Below are positions 16,564-30,442 of a stretch of DNA of 30,442 bases, piece by piece. A program made the translations under genes and the position numbers. The stretch is from Bacteroidota bacterium (GTDB lineage Bacteria > Bacteroidota > Bacteroidia > Flavobacteriales_D > Sanyastnellaceae). The notes beneath the pieces were generated by a model. That model had not been told where the DNA came from and did no database searches. It saw only the letters and a program-made list of their open reading frames with translations. Within the stretch, counting starts at the first letter, position 1. The number at the start of each line of letters is the position of its first letter. The stretch is from assembly GCA_046081505.1 (NCBI GenBank), contig JBJTWB010000275.1, forward strand, positions 1 through 30,442, given 5' to 3'.

Positions 16564-16571
16564 TACCTTTG
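16564..16571 (+). promoter_or_regulatory. -7 promoter element (TACCTTTG) for clpX-mutS
   Basis: Perfect TAnnTTTG in the priA-clpX gap; the track's TTG start (16569) lies inside it. Confidence 0.65.
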
Positions 16572-16589
16572 ATCTCTAAACAAATTCGA

Positions 16590-17819
16590 ATGTCAAAACA
16601 AGATATTTCTTGCTCTTTTTGTGGAAGAAAGAAAAGTGAAGCAGGTCTTTTAATCGCCGGGGTTTCAGGTCATATTTGCGCTGATTGTGCGGTTCAAGCC
16701 AGTGAAATAGTCAAAGAAGAGTCGAAACCCAGAGAAGAGGAATCATTTCAATCTTCCGAAATTTTAAAGCCAAAAGAAATTCAGCATTTTTTAGATGAGT
16801 ATATCATTGGTCAAGAAGAAGCAAAAAAGGTACTCAGCGTTGCCGTATACAACCACTATAAAAGGTTAGCTCAAGGCGTTTCAAAGAAACAAGATGGGGT
16901 TGAAATTGAGAAATCTAATATTGTATTGGTTGGGGAAACAGGAACAGGAAAAACACTTTTGGCGAAGACAATAGCGAAGATGCTACACGTTCCTTTTTGC
17001 ATTGCAGACGCCACGGTATTGACACAAGCGGGATATGTTGGAGAAGACGTTGAAAGCATTCTTTCACGCTTGCTACAAAATGCTGATTACGATGTTCAAA
17101 AAGCAGAACGAGGAATTGTTTTCATTGATGAAATAGACAAGATTGCGCGTAAAAGTGACAACCCAAGTATAACCAGAGATGTGAGCGGTGAAGGGGTTCA
17201 ACAAGCTTTATTGAAACTTTTAGAAGGCGCGATAGTGAGCGTACCACCCCAAGGCGGACGCAAGCACCCCGAACAAAAAATGATTCAAATTGACACCAAA
17301 AATGTTCTGTTTATTTGTGGAGGGGCTTTTGACGGTATTGATAAACACATTGAGAGAAGAATGAATACGGCTTCCATTGGTTTTAGAAGCGCCTTGTCTC
17401 AAGAAGAAGTGCAAAGTTGGCTTCAGTTTATTTCTCCAGCCGATTTAAAACAGTTTGGTTTGATACCAGAATTAATTGGCCGCTTTCCGGTATTAACATT
17501 TTTGAATACACTCAATGCTACTGCCTTAAGACGAATTTTAACGGAGCCTAAAAACGCATTGGTACGTCAGTACATGCGTTTATTTGAAATGGATGGTGTA
17601 AAGCTTTCTTTCGATAAGCAAGTACTTGATTTCATTGTTGAACAAGCCATGGAATACCAATTGGGCGCACGTGGACTACGCTCCATTTGTGAAGCCATTT
17701 TGTTAGATGCCATGTTTGAAATTCCAAATAACAAAGACCAGAAAGAATTCAAGGTGACATTGACCTATGCAAAGGAGCAATTTGGAAAATCAAAAATCAG
17801 TAAATTGAAAGTGGCCTAG
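16590..17819 (+). CDS. clpX: ATP-dependent Clp protease ATP-binding subunit
   Basis: CSFC...HICADC zinc finger, [28 protein letters not shown] loop, GARGLR. Start taken as ATG 16590. Confidence 0.97.
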
Positions 17820-17820
17820 C

Positions 17821-19170
17821 ATGTCTGAAGAGAAGCAAGATGTGGTGGAAACTCCACTCATGAAACAATACAACGGAATTAAGGTACAGTATCCCGATGC
17901 CTTGCTGTTGTTTCGTGTTGGTGATTTTTACGAAACGTTTGGTTCTGACGCGGTTGAAGCCGCGCGCATTCTTGGTATTACTTTAACAAAAAGGAAAAAC
18001 GGCGCAGCTGCATTTGTTGAGTTAGCGGGTTTCCCACACCATGCGTTAGATACGTATTTGCCGAAATTAGTTCGGGCTGGAAATAGAGTGGCTATCTGTG
18101 ATCAGTTGGAAGATCCAAAACTCACCAAGAAAATTGTTAAACGCGGTATCACTGAACTTGTAACGCCCGGGGTGAGTTACAATGAAAAAACGTATGACAG
18201 CTCAAACAATCAGTTTTTAGCCGCTGTGGTCATGCGAAACAATTTAGCCGGTGTGAGTTTTTTAGATATTTCTACGGGAGAGTTTTATTTGGCAGAGGGA
18301 TCATATCAACATGTAGCGAAGTTGTTACAAAGTTTTAGACCGAATGAGGTGTTGTTTCAAAAGCACACAGATCAAGCTTTTCGCGAGGCATTCGGAGATA
18401 CCAAATACTTTACTTTTCGTCTTGATGAATGGATTTTTTCATCAGACTATGCCGAAGAAGTGCTGCAAAAACAATTTGGAACCAAGTCTTTAAAAGGCTT
18501 CGGTGTAGATGATTTAAAATTGGGTGTTATTGCAGCCGGAGCGGCAATGCACTATCTGAAAGATACCCAACATGATAAAACCGCACACATACAAAAAATT
18601 GCTCGGTTAGAGCAAGACGCGTACATGTGGTTAGACCGATTCACCATTCGAAATTTAGAATTGGTGAATAGCCTGCACGATGAAAGCGCCACACTTTACC
18701 ATGTCTTAAATCAGACGTGCACCCCCATGGGGGCGAGGTTGTTGAGGAGGTGGATTTTACTTCCACTAAAAGAAATTTCAGCCATTGAGAAAAGAAGCAA
18801 TGCTGTAAAAATCTTAACAGAGAATCAGGAGTTTTTGGCAGAACTGCGACTGCATTTGAACGGTCTTGGAGATACTGAAAGGCTGGCTTCCAAAGTGGCA
18901 ACCTCGCGAATAAATCCAAGAGAATTGCTCCAATTGGCGAAGGCTATGAATACCAGCAACGCCATTCACCAATTGATAAAAGACAAAAACTTTCCTGCTT
19001 TATTTCATTGGGCAAAAGATCTGGTAGAACTTGAACCCTGGGTGAATGAAATAATGAACACCTTAAATCCAGATGCTCCCATTGCCTTGAATAAAGGTGA
19101 GGTCATAGCAAAAGGAGGTGTTCGATTGGTTGGCAGGAGTGCCACTTCCAGAAGGTCAAAAACCTTTTGA
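17821..19170 (+). pseudogene. mutS: DNA mismatch repair protein MutS, N-terminal half only (truncated)
   Basis: ETPLMKQY, LLFRVGDFYE (mismatch-binding Phe), TPMGARLLRRW; MutS-like sequence stops at about residue 432 (GEVIAKG), then 17 residues read out of frame from the next gene; no Walker A/B ATPase domain. Confidence 0.88.
19111..19120. other. Apparent deletion or assembly junction between mutS and ricT
   Basis: AAAGGAGGTG: left side reads MutS K-G, right side reads RicT E-V-F-D-W-L in the +1 frame; in-frame TAG at 19106-19108 leaves no room for a RicT N-terminus. Confidence 0.7.
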
Positions 19171-20218
19171 TGTTGCAGAATTGCGTTTTAAAAACGGACG
19201 TAAAGGCTATTATCGTAAAGGAGCCATGGACTTATATCAGGGCGATGTAGTAGTTGTTGAAGCACAATCTGGATATGATGTTGGAGTGGTTTCATTAACA
19301 GGTGAGCTTGTTCGAATTCAAATGAATAAGCGCGATGTTAAAGACAACTATGAGCTGAAGAAAATTCTTCGCAAGGCAGAGCAAACAGACTTTGAAACGT
19401 GGCAAAATGCCCGGAAAGAAGAGCAAACCACCATGATTCGTGCTAGAGAAATTGTGCGTGAATTGGGTTTGAATATGAAATTAAGCGATGTTGAATTTCA
19501 AGGAGACAGAACGCGCGCAACATTTTACTACTCAGCGGAAGAGCGCGTAGATTTCAGAGAGCTTATTAAACGCTATGCCGATGCGTTTAAAGTTCGAATT
19601 GAAATGAGGCAAATTGGTCTACGGGTGGAAGCGGGAAGATTGGGCGGAATTGGTTCTTGTGGAAGAGAGTTGTGCTGCTCAAGTTGGTTAACGGATTTCA
19701 GAGCAGTTTCAACCAGCGCTGCGCGATACCAGCAGTTGTCATTGAATCCGGGAAAACTTGCAGGGCAATGCGGAAAATTAAAGTGTTGTTTGAATTATGA
19801 ATTGGATCAATACTTTGAGGCGGTTAAGAAATTGCCCCCCTCAAATGTGAAATTAAAATTGGCGAAGGGAACTGCAATTCATTTTAAAACAGACATTTTC
19901 AACGGCGTGTTGTATTACAACATTGAAGGAGTATACGGAGAGCCGCTATTGGCTTTAGGTGCAGATACCGTTCGCGATATCATTGAAAAAAATAAAAAAG
20001 GAATTGTAGTTGGAGAAGTTGTTTCCATTCAGCAGGACATGGAGCCTGTTGCAAAAACAGATTTTGCTGAGGTGGTTGGTCAAGATGATTTGCACCGCTT
20101 CGACAAGAAAAAGAAGCCAAACAAATCAGGAGGAAAAGGTGGAAAGCGCCCCTTTAGAAATAAAGGAAATAATCAAAAACCGAATCAATCCAATAACGCT
20201 GGAAACAAACCAAAATGA
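19118..20218 (+). CDS. ricT: RicT/YaaT (PSP1-domain, 'stage 0 sporulation family') protein, probably 5'-truncated
   Basis: ELRFKNGRKGYY, KLSDVEFQGD, RVDFRELIK, GSCGRELCCSSW, GQCGKLKCCLNYE; K/N/G-rich tail; begins abruptly at VFDWL. Confidence 0.85.
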   Translation: MFDWLAGVPLPEGQKPFDVAELRFKNGRKGYYRKGAMDLYQGDVVVVEAQSGYDVGVVSLTGELVRIQMNKRDVKDNYELKKILRKAEQTDFETWQNARKEEQTTMIRAREIVRELGLNMKLSDVEFQGDRTRATFYYSAEERVDFRELIKRYADAFKVRIEMRQIGLRVEAGRLGGIGSCGRELCCSSWLTDFRAVSTSAARYQQLSLNPGKLAGQCGKLKCCLNYELDQYFEAVKKLPPSNVKLKLAKGTAIHFKTDIFNGVLYYNIEGVYGEPLLALGADTVRDIIEKNKKGIVVGEVVSIQQDMEPVAKTDFAEVVGQDDLHRFDKKKKPNKSGGKGGKRPFRNKGNNQKPNQSNNAGNKPK

Positions 20219-20682
20219 AGCCTCTCTATTTAAGCATCTTTTTGTTATCTATCCTCTTCTCATCATGCTCAGACGAGGCGGTTTATGAGGGAAATAAGGT
20301 TATTGAAAACGGAATTTGGGACAGTCAGAACGTTGCTGTGTTTGAATTTGATATTATGGACACCGTTAATCTTCACGATTTCTTTTTAGATATTCGAAAC
20401 GGGGAAGAATATGAATTCAGTAATTTGAATGTATTTATTGAAATGGAATTTCCGAATGGAAAGCTAGCCGTAGACACTTTAGAGTGTCCCATGGCAGATG
20501 AGCTGGGAAATTGGTACGGAAAAGGCGGTCTAGGTGATTTGTATGACAACCGAATTATTTACAAATCGAAAAAACAATTTCCAATTGCAGGACATTATAA
20601 AGTGAGTATTCATCAAGGAATGCGCGTAAACCCTTTGCCAGGAATTTACGACATAGGCTTTCGTCTAGCGAAGTCGAAGTAA
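20215..20682 (+). CDS. gldH: Gliding motility lipoprotein GldH
   Basis: Lipobox LFSSC; IRNGEEYEFSNL, DTLECPMAD...GNWYGKG, YKVSIHQGMR; ATGA overlap with ricT. Confidence 0.88.
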   Translation: MKPLYLSIFLLSILFSSCSDEAVYEGNKVIENGIWDSQNVAVFEFDIMDTVNLHDFFLDIRNGEEYEFSNLNVFIEMEFPNGKLAVDTLECPMADELGNWYGKGGLGDLYDNRIIYKSKKQFPIAGHYKVSIHQGMRVNPLPGIYDIGFRLAKSK

Positions 20683-20685
20683 AAC

Positions 20686-21426
20686 CTATTTCAGATTTTT
20701 TTTGCTCCAAATGTTGTATTTCATAATACACCAAATGGCTCTAAATCCATCTTTCCATCCAATTTTTTTACCTTCTTCATACGTTCTTCCGTAATAAGAA
20801 ATTCCAACCTCGTATATGCGAATGTTTGGAATACGTGAAAGCTTGGCAGTTACTTCAGGCTCGAACCCGAAGCGTTTTTCTTTTAACAACAAACTTTTTG
20901 CAATGTCTGCACGCATCAGTTTGTAACAGGTTTCCATGTCTGTTAAATTCAAATTGGTGAACATGTTACTTGCAAAAGTTAGCCACCCATTTCCAATGCT
21001 ATGCCAGAAGAATAGAATGCGGTGGGGTTTTCCACCCATGAAACGAGAACCGTACACAACATCTGCCCCTGCTTTAAATACCGGTTTAATGAGTACGTTG
21101 AACTCTTCTGGATCGTATTCCAAATCAGCATCTTGTACAATGACAAAATCGCCAGAGGCAATTTCAATAGCCTTGTGAATAGCGGCACCCTTTCCCTGAT
21201 TTACAGGCTGAGAATAAAATTTAAAATCACGCTCTGGATGATTGGCGATATATGCCTCAACAACTTCAACTGTGTTGTCGCGAGAAGCATCGTTTACAAT
21301 GACAATCTCCATTTGTATGTTGTTCGGAAGAACAACTTCGCCAATTCTATCTAGAATATGATGAATGGTAGCTCCCTCGTTGTATGCTGGAATTAATACA
21401 GAAAGTTTATTGAACGGATGATTCAT
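20686..21426 (-). CDS. Glycosyltransferase family 2 (DPM1-like polyprenol-phosphate glycosyltransferase)
   Basis: [46 protein letters not shown]. Confidence 0.92.
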
Positions 21427-24822: not shown

Positions 24823-27800
24823 TTATTCTTTAATGAAAATGCCTTTAGAAGTTTCGTCCATACTATTACAATGAAAATGAAATGGGTTTTTTGGTTGAGG
24901 CTTTCGTGTGGAAGCTCCGCCATTTTTTGCCTCCTCCATTTTCTGGATAATTCGTTCACGTTCAGATGCAAAGGCCACCCTTGCTTTTTCATCATCTTCC
25001 AAGTTGAAATAACAAGCTCCATCTATGTACGTCTTTTCTGCTCGAGCATAAATACTTAAGGGCTCGTTGTTCCAAACCACAAAGTCTGCATCTTTTCCAA
25101 CTTTTAACGAGCCCATGCGATCATCTAAGTGTAAAAGTTTAGCCGGATTCAAGGTTACCATCTTCAAGGCTTCTTCCTCCGGAACACTTCCATACTTTAC
25201 AATTTTTCCTGCTTCTTGATTTAAGCGAGCGCCCATTTCCGCATCATCTGAATTGATGGCAACAATAATTCCTTGCTCATACATAACAGCGGCATTGTAT
25301 GGAATAGCATCTTTAACTTCTGCTTTGTATGCCCACCAATCGCTGAATGTGGACGCTCCCGCTCCGTGAGCTTTCATTTTATCTGCGACTTTATAACCCT
25401 CTAAAATATGTGTGAATGTATTTATTTTGAAGTTGAAACTGTCTGCCACATGCATGAGCATGTTTATTTCACTTTGCACATAGCTGTGACAGGTAATGAA
25501 ACGTTCTTTGCGAAGAATTTCTAAAATGGTCTCCAATTCTAAATCCCTTCTTGGAGCGCTAGGCATGGGAAGACCTTTCTTGACTTTCTTACAAGCGGCG
25601 TAGTAATTTTCCCAGGTTTTTCCGTATTCCAACGCGCGGTAGAAATGATCGTAATACACCTGCTCAACTCCCATGCGGGTTTGTGGGAAACGCGTTACTG
25701 CGCGATCTCCCCAATTGCTTTGTTTGACGTTTTCCCCTAAAGCGAATTTGATAAATCCAGGTGCGTTCTCAATCTTCATTCCTTCTGCATTTGCTCCCCA
25801 ACGGAATTTTACCAAAGCACTTTGTCCACCAATTGGATTGGCACTTCCGTGAAGCAACTGCGAAGCCGTTGTACCACCAGAGAGTTGACGGTAGATGTCA
25901 ATGTCTTCCGGATAGATGACACTTCCTTCTTCAACTTCTGCACTGCTAGCTTGTGTGCCTTCATTTACACTCGAAAGCGCAATGTGGCTGTGCTCATCAA
26001 TAATACCAGGTGAAATGTGTTTTCCTGTGGCTTCTATTTCTTTCACAACCTCACCTTTCGGAATTACAAGATCTAAGCCTATTCCAGCAATTTTTCCGCT
26101 TTTTACCCAAAGGTCTCCTTCTTGAATTTTTCCATTTTCACAGGTCCACAATGTGGCATTGCGAAACACCACGTTTTCTTGTTGGGGCAGCGAGGTTCTT
26201 CCGTAGGCGGTGAACGGATAAATGATTTCGCCGGGAAGTGATTTTGTTTTTTCACCCTTTTTTACTTCTTCTTTTTTCGGAAAAGAAGTAACGGTTGCAC
26301 GCATTGAAAACGGAAGTTTTCCAAAGGTGACAAGATCTAAAACAAGCTCTTTTTCAGTTGAATGAATATTTCCTGAAACACGTGTAAAAGCCGTGCTGTC
26401 GAGCATTATTTCTCCAACTGGAAAACCATCTTTTAACTGTAATTTCAATTGAACAAGTGTGCTGTCTTTCGAACTAGAACCAAGCGCCTCATGAAGTTTT
26501 TTTAATTCCTCAGTTGTCTTCAATTTAGAACTAACTATTATTTCTTCCCCCTTACCTTTTTTACTTTCTGCTTTTATGCCGGTTCCTAAGACAGAAATGG
26601 CGTAAGTCCCTTCAAGAGAAATGGCATCAGCACTTGAAACAAAGTATGGTTTCCCGTTTACCCATGTTTCTAGCACCTTTGATTCAGATGTAAAAAGCTC
26701 TTTATTGGTAATAATAAAATTGGCGTCATACCCAGCAAGAATAGACCCCACGCGATGTTGAGCGTTCAAATATTGAGCTGGACGAGTAGTCAATGCGGCT
26801 AATGCAATATTCGCGGGTAGTCCGTTGTCAACAGCAATACGAATGTTTTCAAGCAATTGGCTTTTGTCTTCAAGTCCGCTAGAGGTAATACAGAATTCAA
26901 TTCCAGCTTTATTCAAATAGGCTAAGTTAAAAGGCGCCAATTCCCAATGTTTTAATTCTGCTGTAGAAATATATCGGTTGCTTGCAGGATCGCTCACATC
27001 AAACGCTTGGGGGTAATTTACAGGAACAATAAACTTACCTTTTGTGGCTTTCATTTCCTCGATGCGCTGGTATTCGTTTCCTCCTGTTTTGAACAAATAC
27101 TGCACACCAAACTCATCACCAATAGCGTCAGCACGAAGAATGTTCCATTTGTCATTGGCTTCGAAAATTTGAGCAAGATTGCTATTCACGTTCATTGCGC
27201 GAAGAGAGAGGTTTGTTTCAACCGATTCCTTCAAATTCGCGTACCAGCTTGCATCGCAGTAGGTTTGTCGAAGTAAAGCAATGCTTCCCATAATTGAAGA
27301 TGGGTATTGTTGTGGACTACTTCCTTTGTTAAACGAAAAATAAGCAGCGGCTTCAGCACGAATAACGTCGGTGTGTATCTCATTGCCAAGGGCGATCAAT
27401 GCACCAGTACCGCGAGAAATGCCGTCTGCCTTGTGCGCACATACCGCCGTTATTCCGGCATTTCGATAACTTGTCGCATCGTCATCATTGTGTTGAATTT
27501 GCAAGGAGGCATTATACTCAGGATGAATAGCAGCGTTCCAGCCTAAAATACTTTTTCCTGTTTCCTCGGTTTCTTCGCCGTGATTGTCATTTTGTTTTTT
27601 AGGAATTCCGTAAGTGGAAAAAGCATCAATGAATCCGGCGTAAATGAATTTTCCGCTGGCATCAATAATAGCGCAGTGTTTGGGTATGGGAATGTTTTTA
27701 CCTACAGAAATTATTTTCCCCTTTTCAACAATAACAGTTGCACCTTCAAGTTTAATCTCAGGTGTGGAATAGATAGTTGCATTCGTTAAGGCATAGGCGC

Positions 27801-27900
27801 TAACATCTTTTGGTCGAATACCATTGAATGGAAAGGTGTCTTGAGCAAACAAAAAGCATGAGTGCGAAGCAAGAAGGATTAAAAACAAAAGTTTTTTCAT
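24823..27900 (-). CDS. Exported tandem two-domain amidohydrolase-family protein
   Basis: MKKLLFLILL signal peptide (start moved to ATG 27900); domain 1 GFIDAFS...GSILAGYDANF, domain 2 PGIIDEHSH...INSD...GSLKVGKDADF. Confidence 0.88.
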   Translation of the reverse strand: MKKLLFLILLASHSCFLFAQDTFPFNGIRPKDVSAYALTNATIYSTPEIKLEGATVIVEKGKIISVGKNIPIPKHCAIIDASGKFIYAGFIDAFSTYGIPKKQNDNHGEETEETGKSILGWNAAIHPEYNASLQIQHNDDDATSYRNAGITAVCAHKADGISRGTGALIALGNEIHTDVIRAEAAAYFSFNKGSSPQQYPSSIMGSIALLRQTYCDASWYANLKESVETNLSLRAMNVNSNLAQIFEANDKWNILRADAIGDEFGVQYLFKTGGNEYQRIEEMKATKGKFIVPVNYPQAFDVSDPASNRYISTAELKHWELAPFNLAYLNKAGIEFCITSSGLEDKSQLLENIRIAVDNGLPANIALAALTTRPAQYLNAQHRVGSILAGYDANFIITNKELFTSESKVLETWVNGKPYFVSSADAISLEGTYAISVLGTGIKAESKKGKGEEIIVSSKLKTTEELKKLHEALGSSSKDSTLVQLKLQLKDGFPVGEIMLDSTAFTRVSGNIHSTEKELVLDLVTFGKLPFSMRATVTSFPKKEEVKKGEKTKSLPGEIIYPFTAYGRTSLPQQENVVFRNATLWTCENGKIQEGDLWVKSGKIAGIGLDLVIPKGEVVKEIEATGKHISPGIIDEHSHIALSSVNEGTQASSAEVEEGSVIYPEDIDIYRQLSGGTTASQLLHGSANPIGGQSALVKFRWGANAEGMKIENAPGFIKFALGENVKQSNWGDRAVTRFPQTRMGVEQVYYDHFYRALEYGKTWENYYAACKKVKKGLPMPSAPRRDLELETILEILRKERFITCHSYVQSEINMLMHVADSFNFKINTFTHILEGYKVADKMKAHGAGASTFSDWWAYKAEVKDAIPYNAAVMYEQGIIVAINSDDAEMGARLNQEAGKIVKYGSVPEEEALKMVTLNPAKLLHLDDRMGSLKVGKDADFVVWNNEPLSIYARAEKTYIDGACYFNLEDDEKARVAFASERERIIQKMEEAKNGGASTRKPQPKNPFHFHCNSMDETSKGIFIKE

Positions 27901-27918
27901 GTTGTCGTTTAAAAAGAA

Positions 27919-27932
27919 AATCGATTTCGATT
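27919..27932. repeat. Inverted repeat AATCGA-TT-TCGATT, operator-like
   Basis: Perfect 6-bp arms with 2-nt spacer, 4 nt downstream of the minus-strand -7 element. Confidence 0.35.
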
Positions 27933-27936
27933 CTAA

Positions 27937-27944
27937 CAAAAATA
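27937..27944 (-). promoter_or_regulatory. -7 promoter element (TATTTTTG) for the amidohydrolase operon
   Basis: Perfect TAnnTTTG on minus strand 36 nt above ATG 27900; the track's TTG start (27939) is inside it. Confidence 0.6.
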
Positions 27945-29743: not shown

Positions 29744-30441
29744 TCCACTACGAATCGAACAGATTGATTGGTCTGCTCACCTTTTATTTGGAGGGTGTAC
29801 AATCCTCTTGGTAAATTCAAATCAAAAGTCTTTGAAAACATTCCCCCAGGTATGCCAACGCTCTCCGTGTAAACTTGTTTTCCAGTTAAATCGAAAATGT
29901 GAACATTTGTTTTATCAAATCGAGGTAAGAACGTATTTAATGTAAAAGAACCGGCATTTGGATTGGGGTAAATTAAACTTTCGGTTATCGAGTTATGTGA
30001 TTCATTCACACTTACAATTGGCTCAACAACAATATTTTCATCGCCATTTACATAATAAGTGTAACAATAGAAAACAATCATCATTTCATCACCTGTTTCT
30101 TCACCGGCAACGACTAGCTGTGGTGGGTTGTTTGGGTTATACGGATTGGCTGAAGTGTTGTCATAGAAAGCCTCAGCTCTCAACTGTGTTCCCTGCGGAA
30201 TTGGAATGAGTTGTGGGTAATTGTAGCTCAGTTGCCAATCAAAACGCCAATTTGGAATGCTAATAAGTGGCTCTGTACTTCCGCCAGATAGTTCAGCCCA
30301 ACTGCTTATGCTTCTTCCAATCAAATGCATATGTGGAAAGCAACCAATAAGCGTAACATCATAAGGAACATTGTACGTTTCAGTGAACGTAGCCGTTTGG
30401 TTGGCCGGAATGAATAAAAAGTTTTGATCCAACACACCCGG
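29740..30441 (-). CDS. T9SS type-A CTD protein with copper type II monooxygenase C-terminal-like domain; 5' end beyond window
   Basis: Frame open to the edge (P-G-V-L-D-Q...); FPHMHLIG, NWRFDWQLSY, GEETGDEMM; C-terminal IYPNP...IFDLTGK...GLYTLQI sorting domain. Confidence 0.82.
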   Translation of the reverse strand, partial: PGVLDQNFLFIPANQTATFTETYNVPYDVTLIGCFPHMHLIGRSISSWAELSGGSTEPLISIPNWRFDWQLSYNYPQLIPIPQGTQLRAEAFYDNTSANPYNPNNPPQLVVAGEETGDEMMIVFYCYTYYVNGDENIVVEPIVSVNESHNSITESLIYPNPNAGSFTLNTFLPRFDKTNVHIFDLTGKQVYTESVGIPGGMFSKTFDLNLPRGLYTLQIKGEQTNQSVRFVVD

Positions 30442-30442
30442 T

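Follow-up and report, generated by a model that had tools for sequence, protein, structure and literature searches.

Loss of the mismatch-repair gene mutS is not lethal, and mutators carrying spontaneous null alleles of it are well documented in nature. Mutator alleles of this kind have reportedly been found in natural Escherichia coli and Salmonella, and mutS-null mutators are also said to occur in Pseudomonas aeruginosa in cystic fibrosis. Lineage-wide loss of mutLS is known from streamlined plankton, namely SAR11 and some Prochlorococcus. A MutS stub that has neither clamp nor ATPase nor dimerisation region cannot support repair. The second gene considered here, ricT (yaaT), codes in Bacillus subtilis for an Fe-S protein of the PSP1 family that belongs to the RNase Y specificity complex (PMC6751060, PMC10470536), and the six cysteines of the Bacillus protein, arranged as CX4CCX30CX4CC, ligate the Fe-S clusters (PMC6751060). 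Finally, short-read metagenome assemblies and uncurated MAGs are known to contain local errors that do not have even one supporting read (Chen et al. 2020, Genome Res, PMC7111523).

The window analysed here is a whole contig of 30,442 nucleotides (C275 in what follows) from a freshwater planktonic bacterium related, among named organisms, most closely to Fluviicola and Crocinitomicaceae MAGs. The genome consists of 296 contigs (1.80 Mb, 84% complete). On the forward strand, an intact clpX (16569 to 17819, with AAA_2, zf-C4_ClpX and ClpB_D2-small domains) stops one nucleotide before the ATG of a 449-aa ORF (17821 to 19170) that corresponds to MutS domains I to III only. The Pfam matches in this ORF were MutS_I at residues 11-121 (E = 1e-38), a complete MutS_II at 131-258 and MutS_III at 275-431, the last covering profile positions 2-154 of 194, which leaves a shortened domain III. 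The Phe-x-Glu mismatch-binding motif (GDFYE) of domain I is kept, as read in the translation. No Pfam match was obtained in the 449-aa ORF for domain IV (clamp) or domain V (ABC ATPase), and the C-terminal dimerisation region is also absent; the intact relatives have 871 aa.

Real mutS sequence extends over 432 codons (17821 to 19116; domains I, II and most of III) and its last MutS-like residues are NKGEVIAKG, with codon 432 at 19114-19116. From 19117 to 19170 there follow 17 codons read out of frame over ricT DNA and then a TGA (19168-19170), so that the translation ends in IAKG GVRLVGRSATSRRSKTF. The +1 frame from 19115 reads E-V-F-D-W-L of RicT, and the two genes follow each other without a spacer. 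The ricT (PSP1/YaaT family) remnant goes from a GTG at 19118 to 20218 on the forward strand, its first in-frame ATG being at 19226. It has lost the native start and the Cys-rich leader (~31-40 aa), and its frame is closed upstream of the junction by a TAG (19106-19108) located within mutS-derived DNA, 12 nt before 19118. What is left contains the full PSP1 profile (PF04468, E = 8e-31, residues 81-166) and, in the translation, an exact CX4CCX30CX4CC motif (C-GREL-CC, 30 residues, C-GKLK-CC). An intact gldH lipoprotein gene (20215 to 20682, forward strand; GldH_lipo, E = 1e-36) comes next, its start overlapping the ricT stop (ATGA, 20215-20218). Elsewhere in the window the large ORFs are uninterrupted and lie close together. 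All this agrees with the initial annotation, which had described a mutS cut in half and fused out of frame to a headless ricT near 19114, with the MutS sequence ending at codon 432, the TAG at 19106, no spacer, no clamp, ATPase or C-terminal domains and all other ORFs intact. By its domain content, the window mutS is a fragment of a MutS1 gene, predicted to be non-functional as a member of that family.

The extent of the loss could be measured in a conspecific contig (L096; JBJTXU010000318.1 of the NCBI MAG GCA_046082425.1) found via an exact look-up of the GldH protein. The retained mutS part of the window is collinear with L096 from position 121 onward, with 99.1% identity in this left flank and 99.7% in the right flank, and in L096 the frame continues to an 871-aa MutS that is followed, with 9 nt between the called genes, by a 406-aa RicT. 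The window is shorter than the intact alleles by exactly 1,448 nt between the breakpoints (L096:1416-2863); this equals 482 codons plus 2 nt and explains the frame shift. A single loss of this size accounts for the truncation of both mutS and ricT, as the initial annotation had proposed. Its further idea that intervening genes had been lost does not hold, the two genes being natively adjacent. Since L096 is intact at more than 99% flank identity, the deletion post-dates a divergence of under 1%, and the event, if real, would be very recent given an intact allele this close.

The intact arrangement extends to the genus. Among the congeneric loci (L004-L014), 11 of 11 have a leader-bearing ricT followed by gldH, and the 3' half of mutS lies directly upstream of ricT in the 10 of 10 that reach that far. 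Logan contigs of other runs, retrieved by the exact GldH look-up, also carry a full-length ricT wherever the region is reached, and a scan of a genome collection gave relatives of at most 61% identity among the matches listed. One could imagine a lineage whose native MutS is short and split and whose RicT starts at VFDWL, with both ORFs open and the neighbour genes intact as they are here, but the frames are out of phase, the mutS end is a nonsense tail and ricT has neither start nor spacer. Relatives organized in this way, which the initial annotation had named as a possible refutation of its proposal, were not found: the 11 congeneric loci, the conspecific MAG (>99% identity) and the Logan contigs are all intact, and we reject the native split gene, leaving it hardly any probability. 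On these comparisons, the intact mutS-ricT arrangement is the native one and the window state a derived one, so far private to this assembly.

Four metagenomes, each from a different study, were compared with positions 17400-20800 of the window by aligning their Logan contigs. In all four, every contig entering from the left fits up to 19115 and then continues into intact mutS sequence, and every contig entering from the right begins to fit at 19114 and has the ricT leader before. In two long contigs (12.1 and 22.7 kb) both flanks are present, separated by 1,446 additional letters. One of the four, X1, has contigs that are 99.3-99.7% identical to the flanks. No contig in these metagenomes bridges 19114/19115, and the depth accounting leaves no room for such a contig in any of them. 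A 60-nt run-index query centred on the junction listed no run, a weak result in which only two words were sampled, and the exact-protein look-up of the truncated 449-aa MutS product gave no record elsewhere. Exact look-ups of ClpX (two starts), of RicT from its first ATG and of the tRNA synthetase gave no record either. The junction has thus not been reproduced in independent assemblies, all of whose contigs carry the intact allele. Such a pattern is in favour of an artefact, which could have arisen from a chimeric molecule in the library, from an error of local assembly or from some later step that left no record, and the true sequence would then be an intact mutS-ricT. The documented existence of assembly errors devoid of read support (Chen et al. 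2020, PMC7111523) points the same way.

The breakpoints themselves are more difficult to reconcile with an error of assembly. On the left side the intact sequence reads AAAAGG|GGTG and on the right side AATGG|AGGTG, so that the letters common to both are only GG (19114-19115), not the GGAG microhomology at 19114-19117 that had been suggested initially. More precisely, the nearest intact alleles have GCAAAAGG|GGTGAATG at the left breakpoint and GCGAATGG|AGGTGTTC at the right one, and the window has GCAAAAGG|AGGTGTTC. The window type of left flank is marked by a C at 19086 and a T at 19087, and the intact mutS continues past the breakpoint with GGTGAATGCAG. No repeat of at least 10 nt is common to the two breakpoint zones, the longest shared word being of 9 nt and out of register, and the 15-, 17- and 21-mers of the junction have no second occurrence anywhere in the genome. 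A short-circuit of the de Bruijn graph through a repeat is therefore not available as an explanation and was rejected. The 9-nt word is a direct repeat, TGAATAAAG, found at positions 305-313 (32 nt upstream of the left breakpoint) and 1664-1672 (at the ricT start) of the contig C263 described below; not being in register with the deletion, it is probably due to chance. The join shows no trace of repeat, gap or scaffolding, with a 2-nt exact overlap and no Ns anywhere in the genome.

The missing piece is present in the same bin. The sole MutS_V match of the genome is on C263 (also L001), a contig of 1,925 nt with a 5'-open mutS frame that goes from domain III to the C terminus and is followed by the first 87 codons of ricT with its Cys-rich leader. 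Positions 1-336 of C263 match the window at 18784-19120 (93.8%) and positions 1773-1925 match it at 19108-19260 (96.1%); the part between these two ends covers the domain IV/V region of mutS and the leader of ricT. The terminal exact overlaps between C263 and the window are of 66 and 47 nt. Among the 296 contigs, C263 alone has its two ends placed within another contig, the behaviour expected of a bubble whose branches differ in length and cannot be collapsed by bubble-merging. The initial annotation had considered that finding the missing halves on another contig would indicate an artefact. They were indeed found, but because C263 overlaps both flanks of the junction with a different SNP haplotype, it should be seen as an alternative allele and not merely as a misplaced piece. 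On the other hand, calling the strain mismatch-repair null, as was also suggested initially, overreaches, since the bin holds an intact mutS allele (the 3' half on C263); mutL is intact in the genome as well.

C263 has a mosaic sequence. In its left flank there are 20 sites (94% identity) at which the window and L096 have the same letter and C263 another; identity to L096 is 98.96% in the middle and 98.7% in the right flank. The 20 substitutions lie in about 240 nt (positions 67-304, equivalent to window 18850-19087) and change only three amino acids, and the 1.4 kb after this divergent tract are 99% identical to L096. From the distribution of these substitutions, the tract looks like a recombined segment in mutS domain III, adjoining the left breakpoint. 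Mosaicism of mutS has reportedly been described in E. coli. That the missing piece sits in the same bin, with a middle so similar to L096, a relative of the window type, again favours an artefact.

Much depends on how the genome was assembled. The exact terminal overlaps between contigs peak at 59, 69, 79 and so on up to 129 and at 141 nt, which we take to be the multi-k series of MEGAHIT ending at k = 141; the two C263-window overlaps match no k of this series. The all-against-all comparison of the contigs gave in addition ~85 pairs whose ends overlap over 150-900 nt, with 88-98% identity. The ends of the window itself (1-666 and 29954-30442) overlap contigs C262 and C148 at ~91%. The overlap statistics thus characterize the bin as a strain-mixed (mosaic) multi-k de Bruijn assembly. 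In such a mosaic, the overlap between C263 and the window resembles those found between neighbour contigs, one more point in favour of an artefact. However, each k-mer of a de Bruijn contig derives from the reads or from contigs of an earlier k, and a false path requires a shared (k-1)-mer. Two shared bases are less than that, so the assembler cannot create a false path at this junction, and reads of real DNA molecules presumably cross it. Neither would a chimeric library fragment be an easy solution: such a fragment must connect in cis two places separated by 1.4 kb, with the orientation preserved, and the chimeric edge must exceed the true one in depth for C275 to remain unbroken. The case is also single among the 296 contigs, which speaks against a systematic tendency of the assembler to such joins.

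The continuity of the two contigs can be used as a further argument. C275 crosses the junction without a break, and C263 likewise passes without a break from its divergent left flank to its middle part. Two unbroken contigs with distinct flank SNPs are the pattern that would be expected of two haplotypes, both supported by reads. A true link, at full depth, between the window type of flank and an intact mutS would have been expected to break C275 at 19115. Weighing these points, we lean towards a real and recent deletion haplotype of one strain, a reading drawn from contig sequences. That the junction is an artefact is a serious possibility, to which we grant clearly less than an even chance. 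These two readings, a recent event or an assembly artefact, are the ones the initial annotation had left standing, and they are still the ones that remain.

If the deletion is real, one event of 1,448 nt with a GG microhomology of 2 nt would have removed mutS codons 433-871, the mutS-ricT spacer and the first ~40 codons of ricT. The product would be a MutS stub with domains I to III plus 17 nonsense residues, predicted to be incapable of DNA clamping and ATP hydrolysis, and fused out of frame to a ricT that would have neither promoter nor start codon. The deletion allele would be one haplotype of a strain-mixed freshwater Flavobacteriales population; the second haplotype of the bin (C263), like all the other populations sampled, retains an intact mutS-ricT-gldH. 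Cells with the deletion allele would be deficient in mismatch repair. We see roughly an even chance that the bin has captured a mutator subpopulation, null for mismatch repair, beside its repair-proficient parent and just after it arose, and that the same deletion has taken the RicT leader and may be polar on gldH.

A mutator might be expected to leave a footprint, and none was seen. Over ~6.3 kb of polarised SNPs, a count with very low power, the window branch had 8 derived changes (6 transitions) versus 13 (11 transitions) on the L096 branch, with no excess on the former and with transitions making up a similar share in both, and this lack of a footprint is on the side of the artefact. A lineage that is losing mismatch repair by genome streamlining, as happens in some planktonic bacteria, might be suspected from the freshwater plankton habitat and the small genome (1.8 Mb at 84% completeness). 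But mutL is intact, the retained half of mutS has suffered no further decay, all congeners and the conspecific contigs keep mutS, and the deletion is absent in strains that are >99% identical, all of which makes streamlining very improbable as an explanation.

The native RicT leader before VFDWL is ~31 aa long, contains 6 Cys (the congeners have 5) and is present in C263, L095, L096, L098 and the 11 congeners, in good agreement with the Cys-rich leader of about 30 aa that the initial annotation had expected. Its pattern in the genus is MGCSSC-x8/9-GC-x-SNG-x-CGTC before MEVFDWL (L001 1690-1782; L004-L014, L095-L098), and this conserved leader is possibly a further metal or cluster site. In the deleted version, a restart of translation would be needed, for example at the ATG at 19226, and ricT would be transcribed from the mutS promoter. 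The order mutS-ricT-gldH is conserved in the congeners examined (L004-L014), and ricT stop and gldH start overlap, suggesting that gldH expression is coupled to that of ricT. Because of this overlap (ATGA), expression of gldH may depend on the damaged upstream genes, and the deletion may be polar on this gliding/T9SS gene. Expression of ricT and gldH would perhaps be impaired in the cells with the deletion, and such a disturbance, which is probable, argues against a long-lived deletion lineage.

As a side observation, the large amidohydrolase gene that codes for 1,038 aa in the window (24823-27939) is called as two genes, of 112 and 920 aa, in L095 (8182-9043), a Logan contig from another lake sample. 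It could be a frameshift of that contig or a strain difference.

The event is in any case of an ordinary kind, be it a mutS deletion allele that arose spontaneously or an error in a MAG, and its main value is one of caution for the annotation of a species-representative MAG. Taken at face value, the annotation (no functional MutS and a short RicT) would be wrong for the species, and probably for most of the cells in the sample. If the deletion is real, it would be a datable mutator arising in a wild planktonic population, with a frequency that could be tracked in lake metagenome series. It would also be a natural double lesion, of mutS and of the RicT leader/gldH, whose spread or extinction might be traced in time series from lakes. 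Besides, the locus draws attention to the conserved and uncharacterised Cys-rich leader of the Flavobacteriales RicT and to the mutS-ricT-gldH order.

When compared with the described systems, the window shares with SAR11 and Prochlorococcus a small-genome aquatic bacterium with no functional mutS on this contig, but here the loss is not lineage-wide, as congeners, conspecific MAG and co-binned contig keep mutS and mutL is present. The local assembly errors of MAGs (PMC7111523) are similar in that the join is private, breaks conserved genes that are intact in near-identical organisms and comes from a strain-mixed and fragmented bin. They differ in that the window join has no Ns and no repeat, and in that the k-mer signature indicates an assembler of the pure de Bruijn type, which makes a 2-nt join only where reads include it. 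With the natural mutS-null alleles the locus has in common a recent loss-of-function deletion of mutS in a subpopulation whose relatives are intact, together with an intact mutL. It departs from them in being known from one metagenome-bin contig alone, in a mutation-spectrum footprint that was not detected (at low power) and in that the deletion also beheads ricT and removes its promoter region. As for RicT itself, the window ORF has the PSP1 domain and the CX4CCX30CX4CC motif of the B. subtilis RicT/YaaT with exactly the same spacing, whereas the leader of the Flavobacteriales protein (MGCSSC..GC..C..C), which the deletion removes, is an extra element not described for the Firmicute protein.
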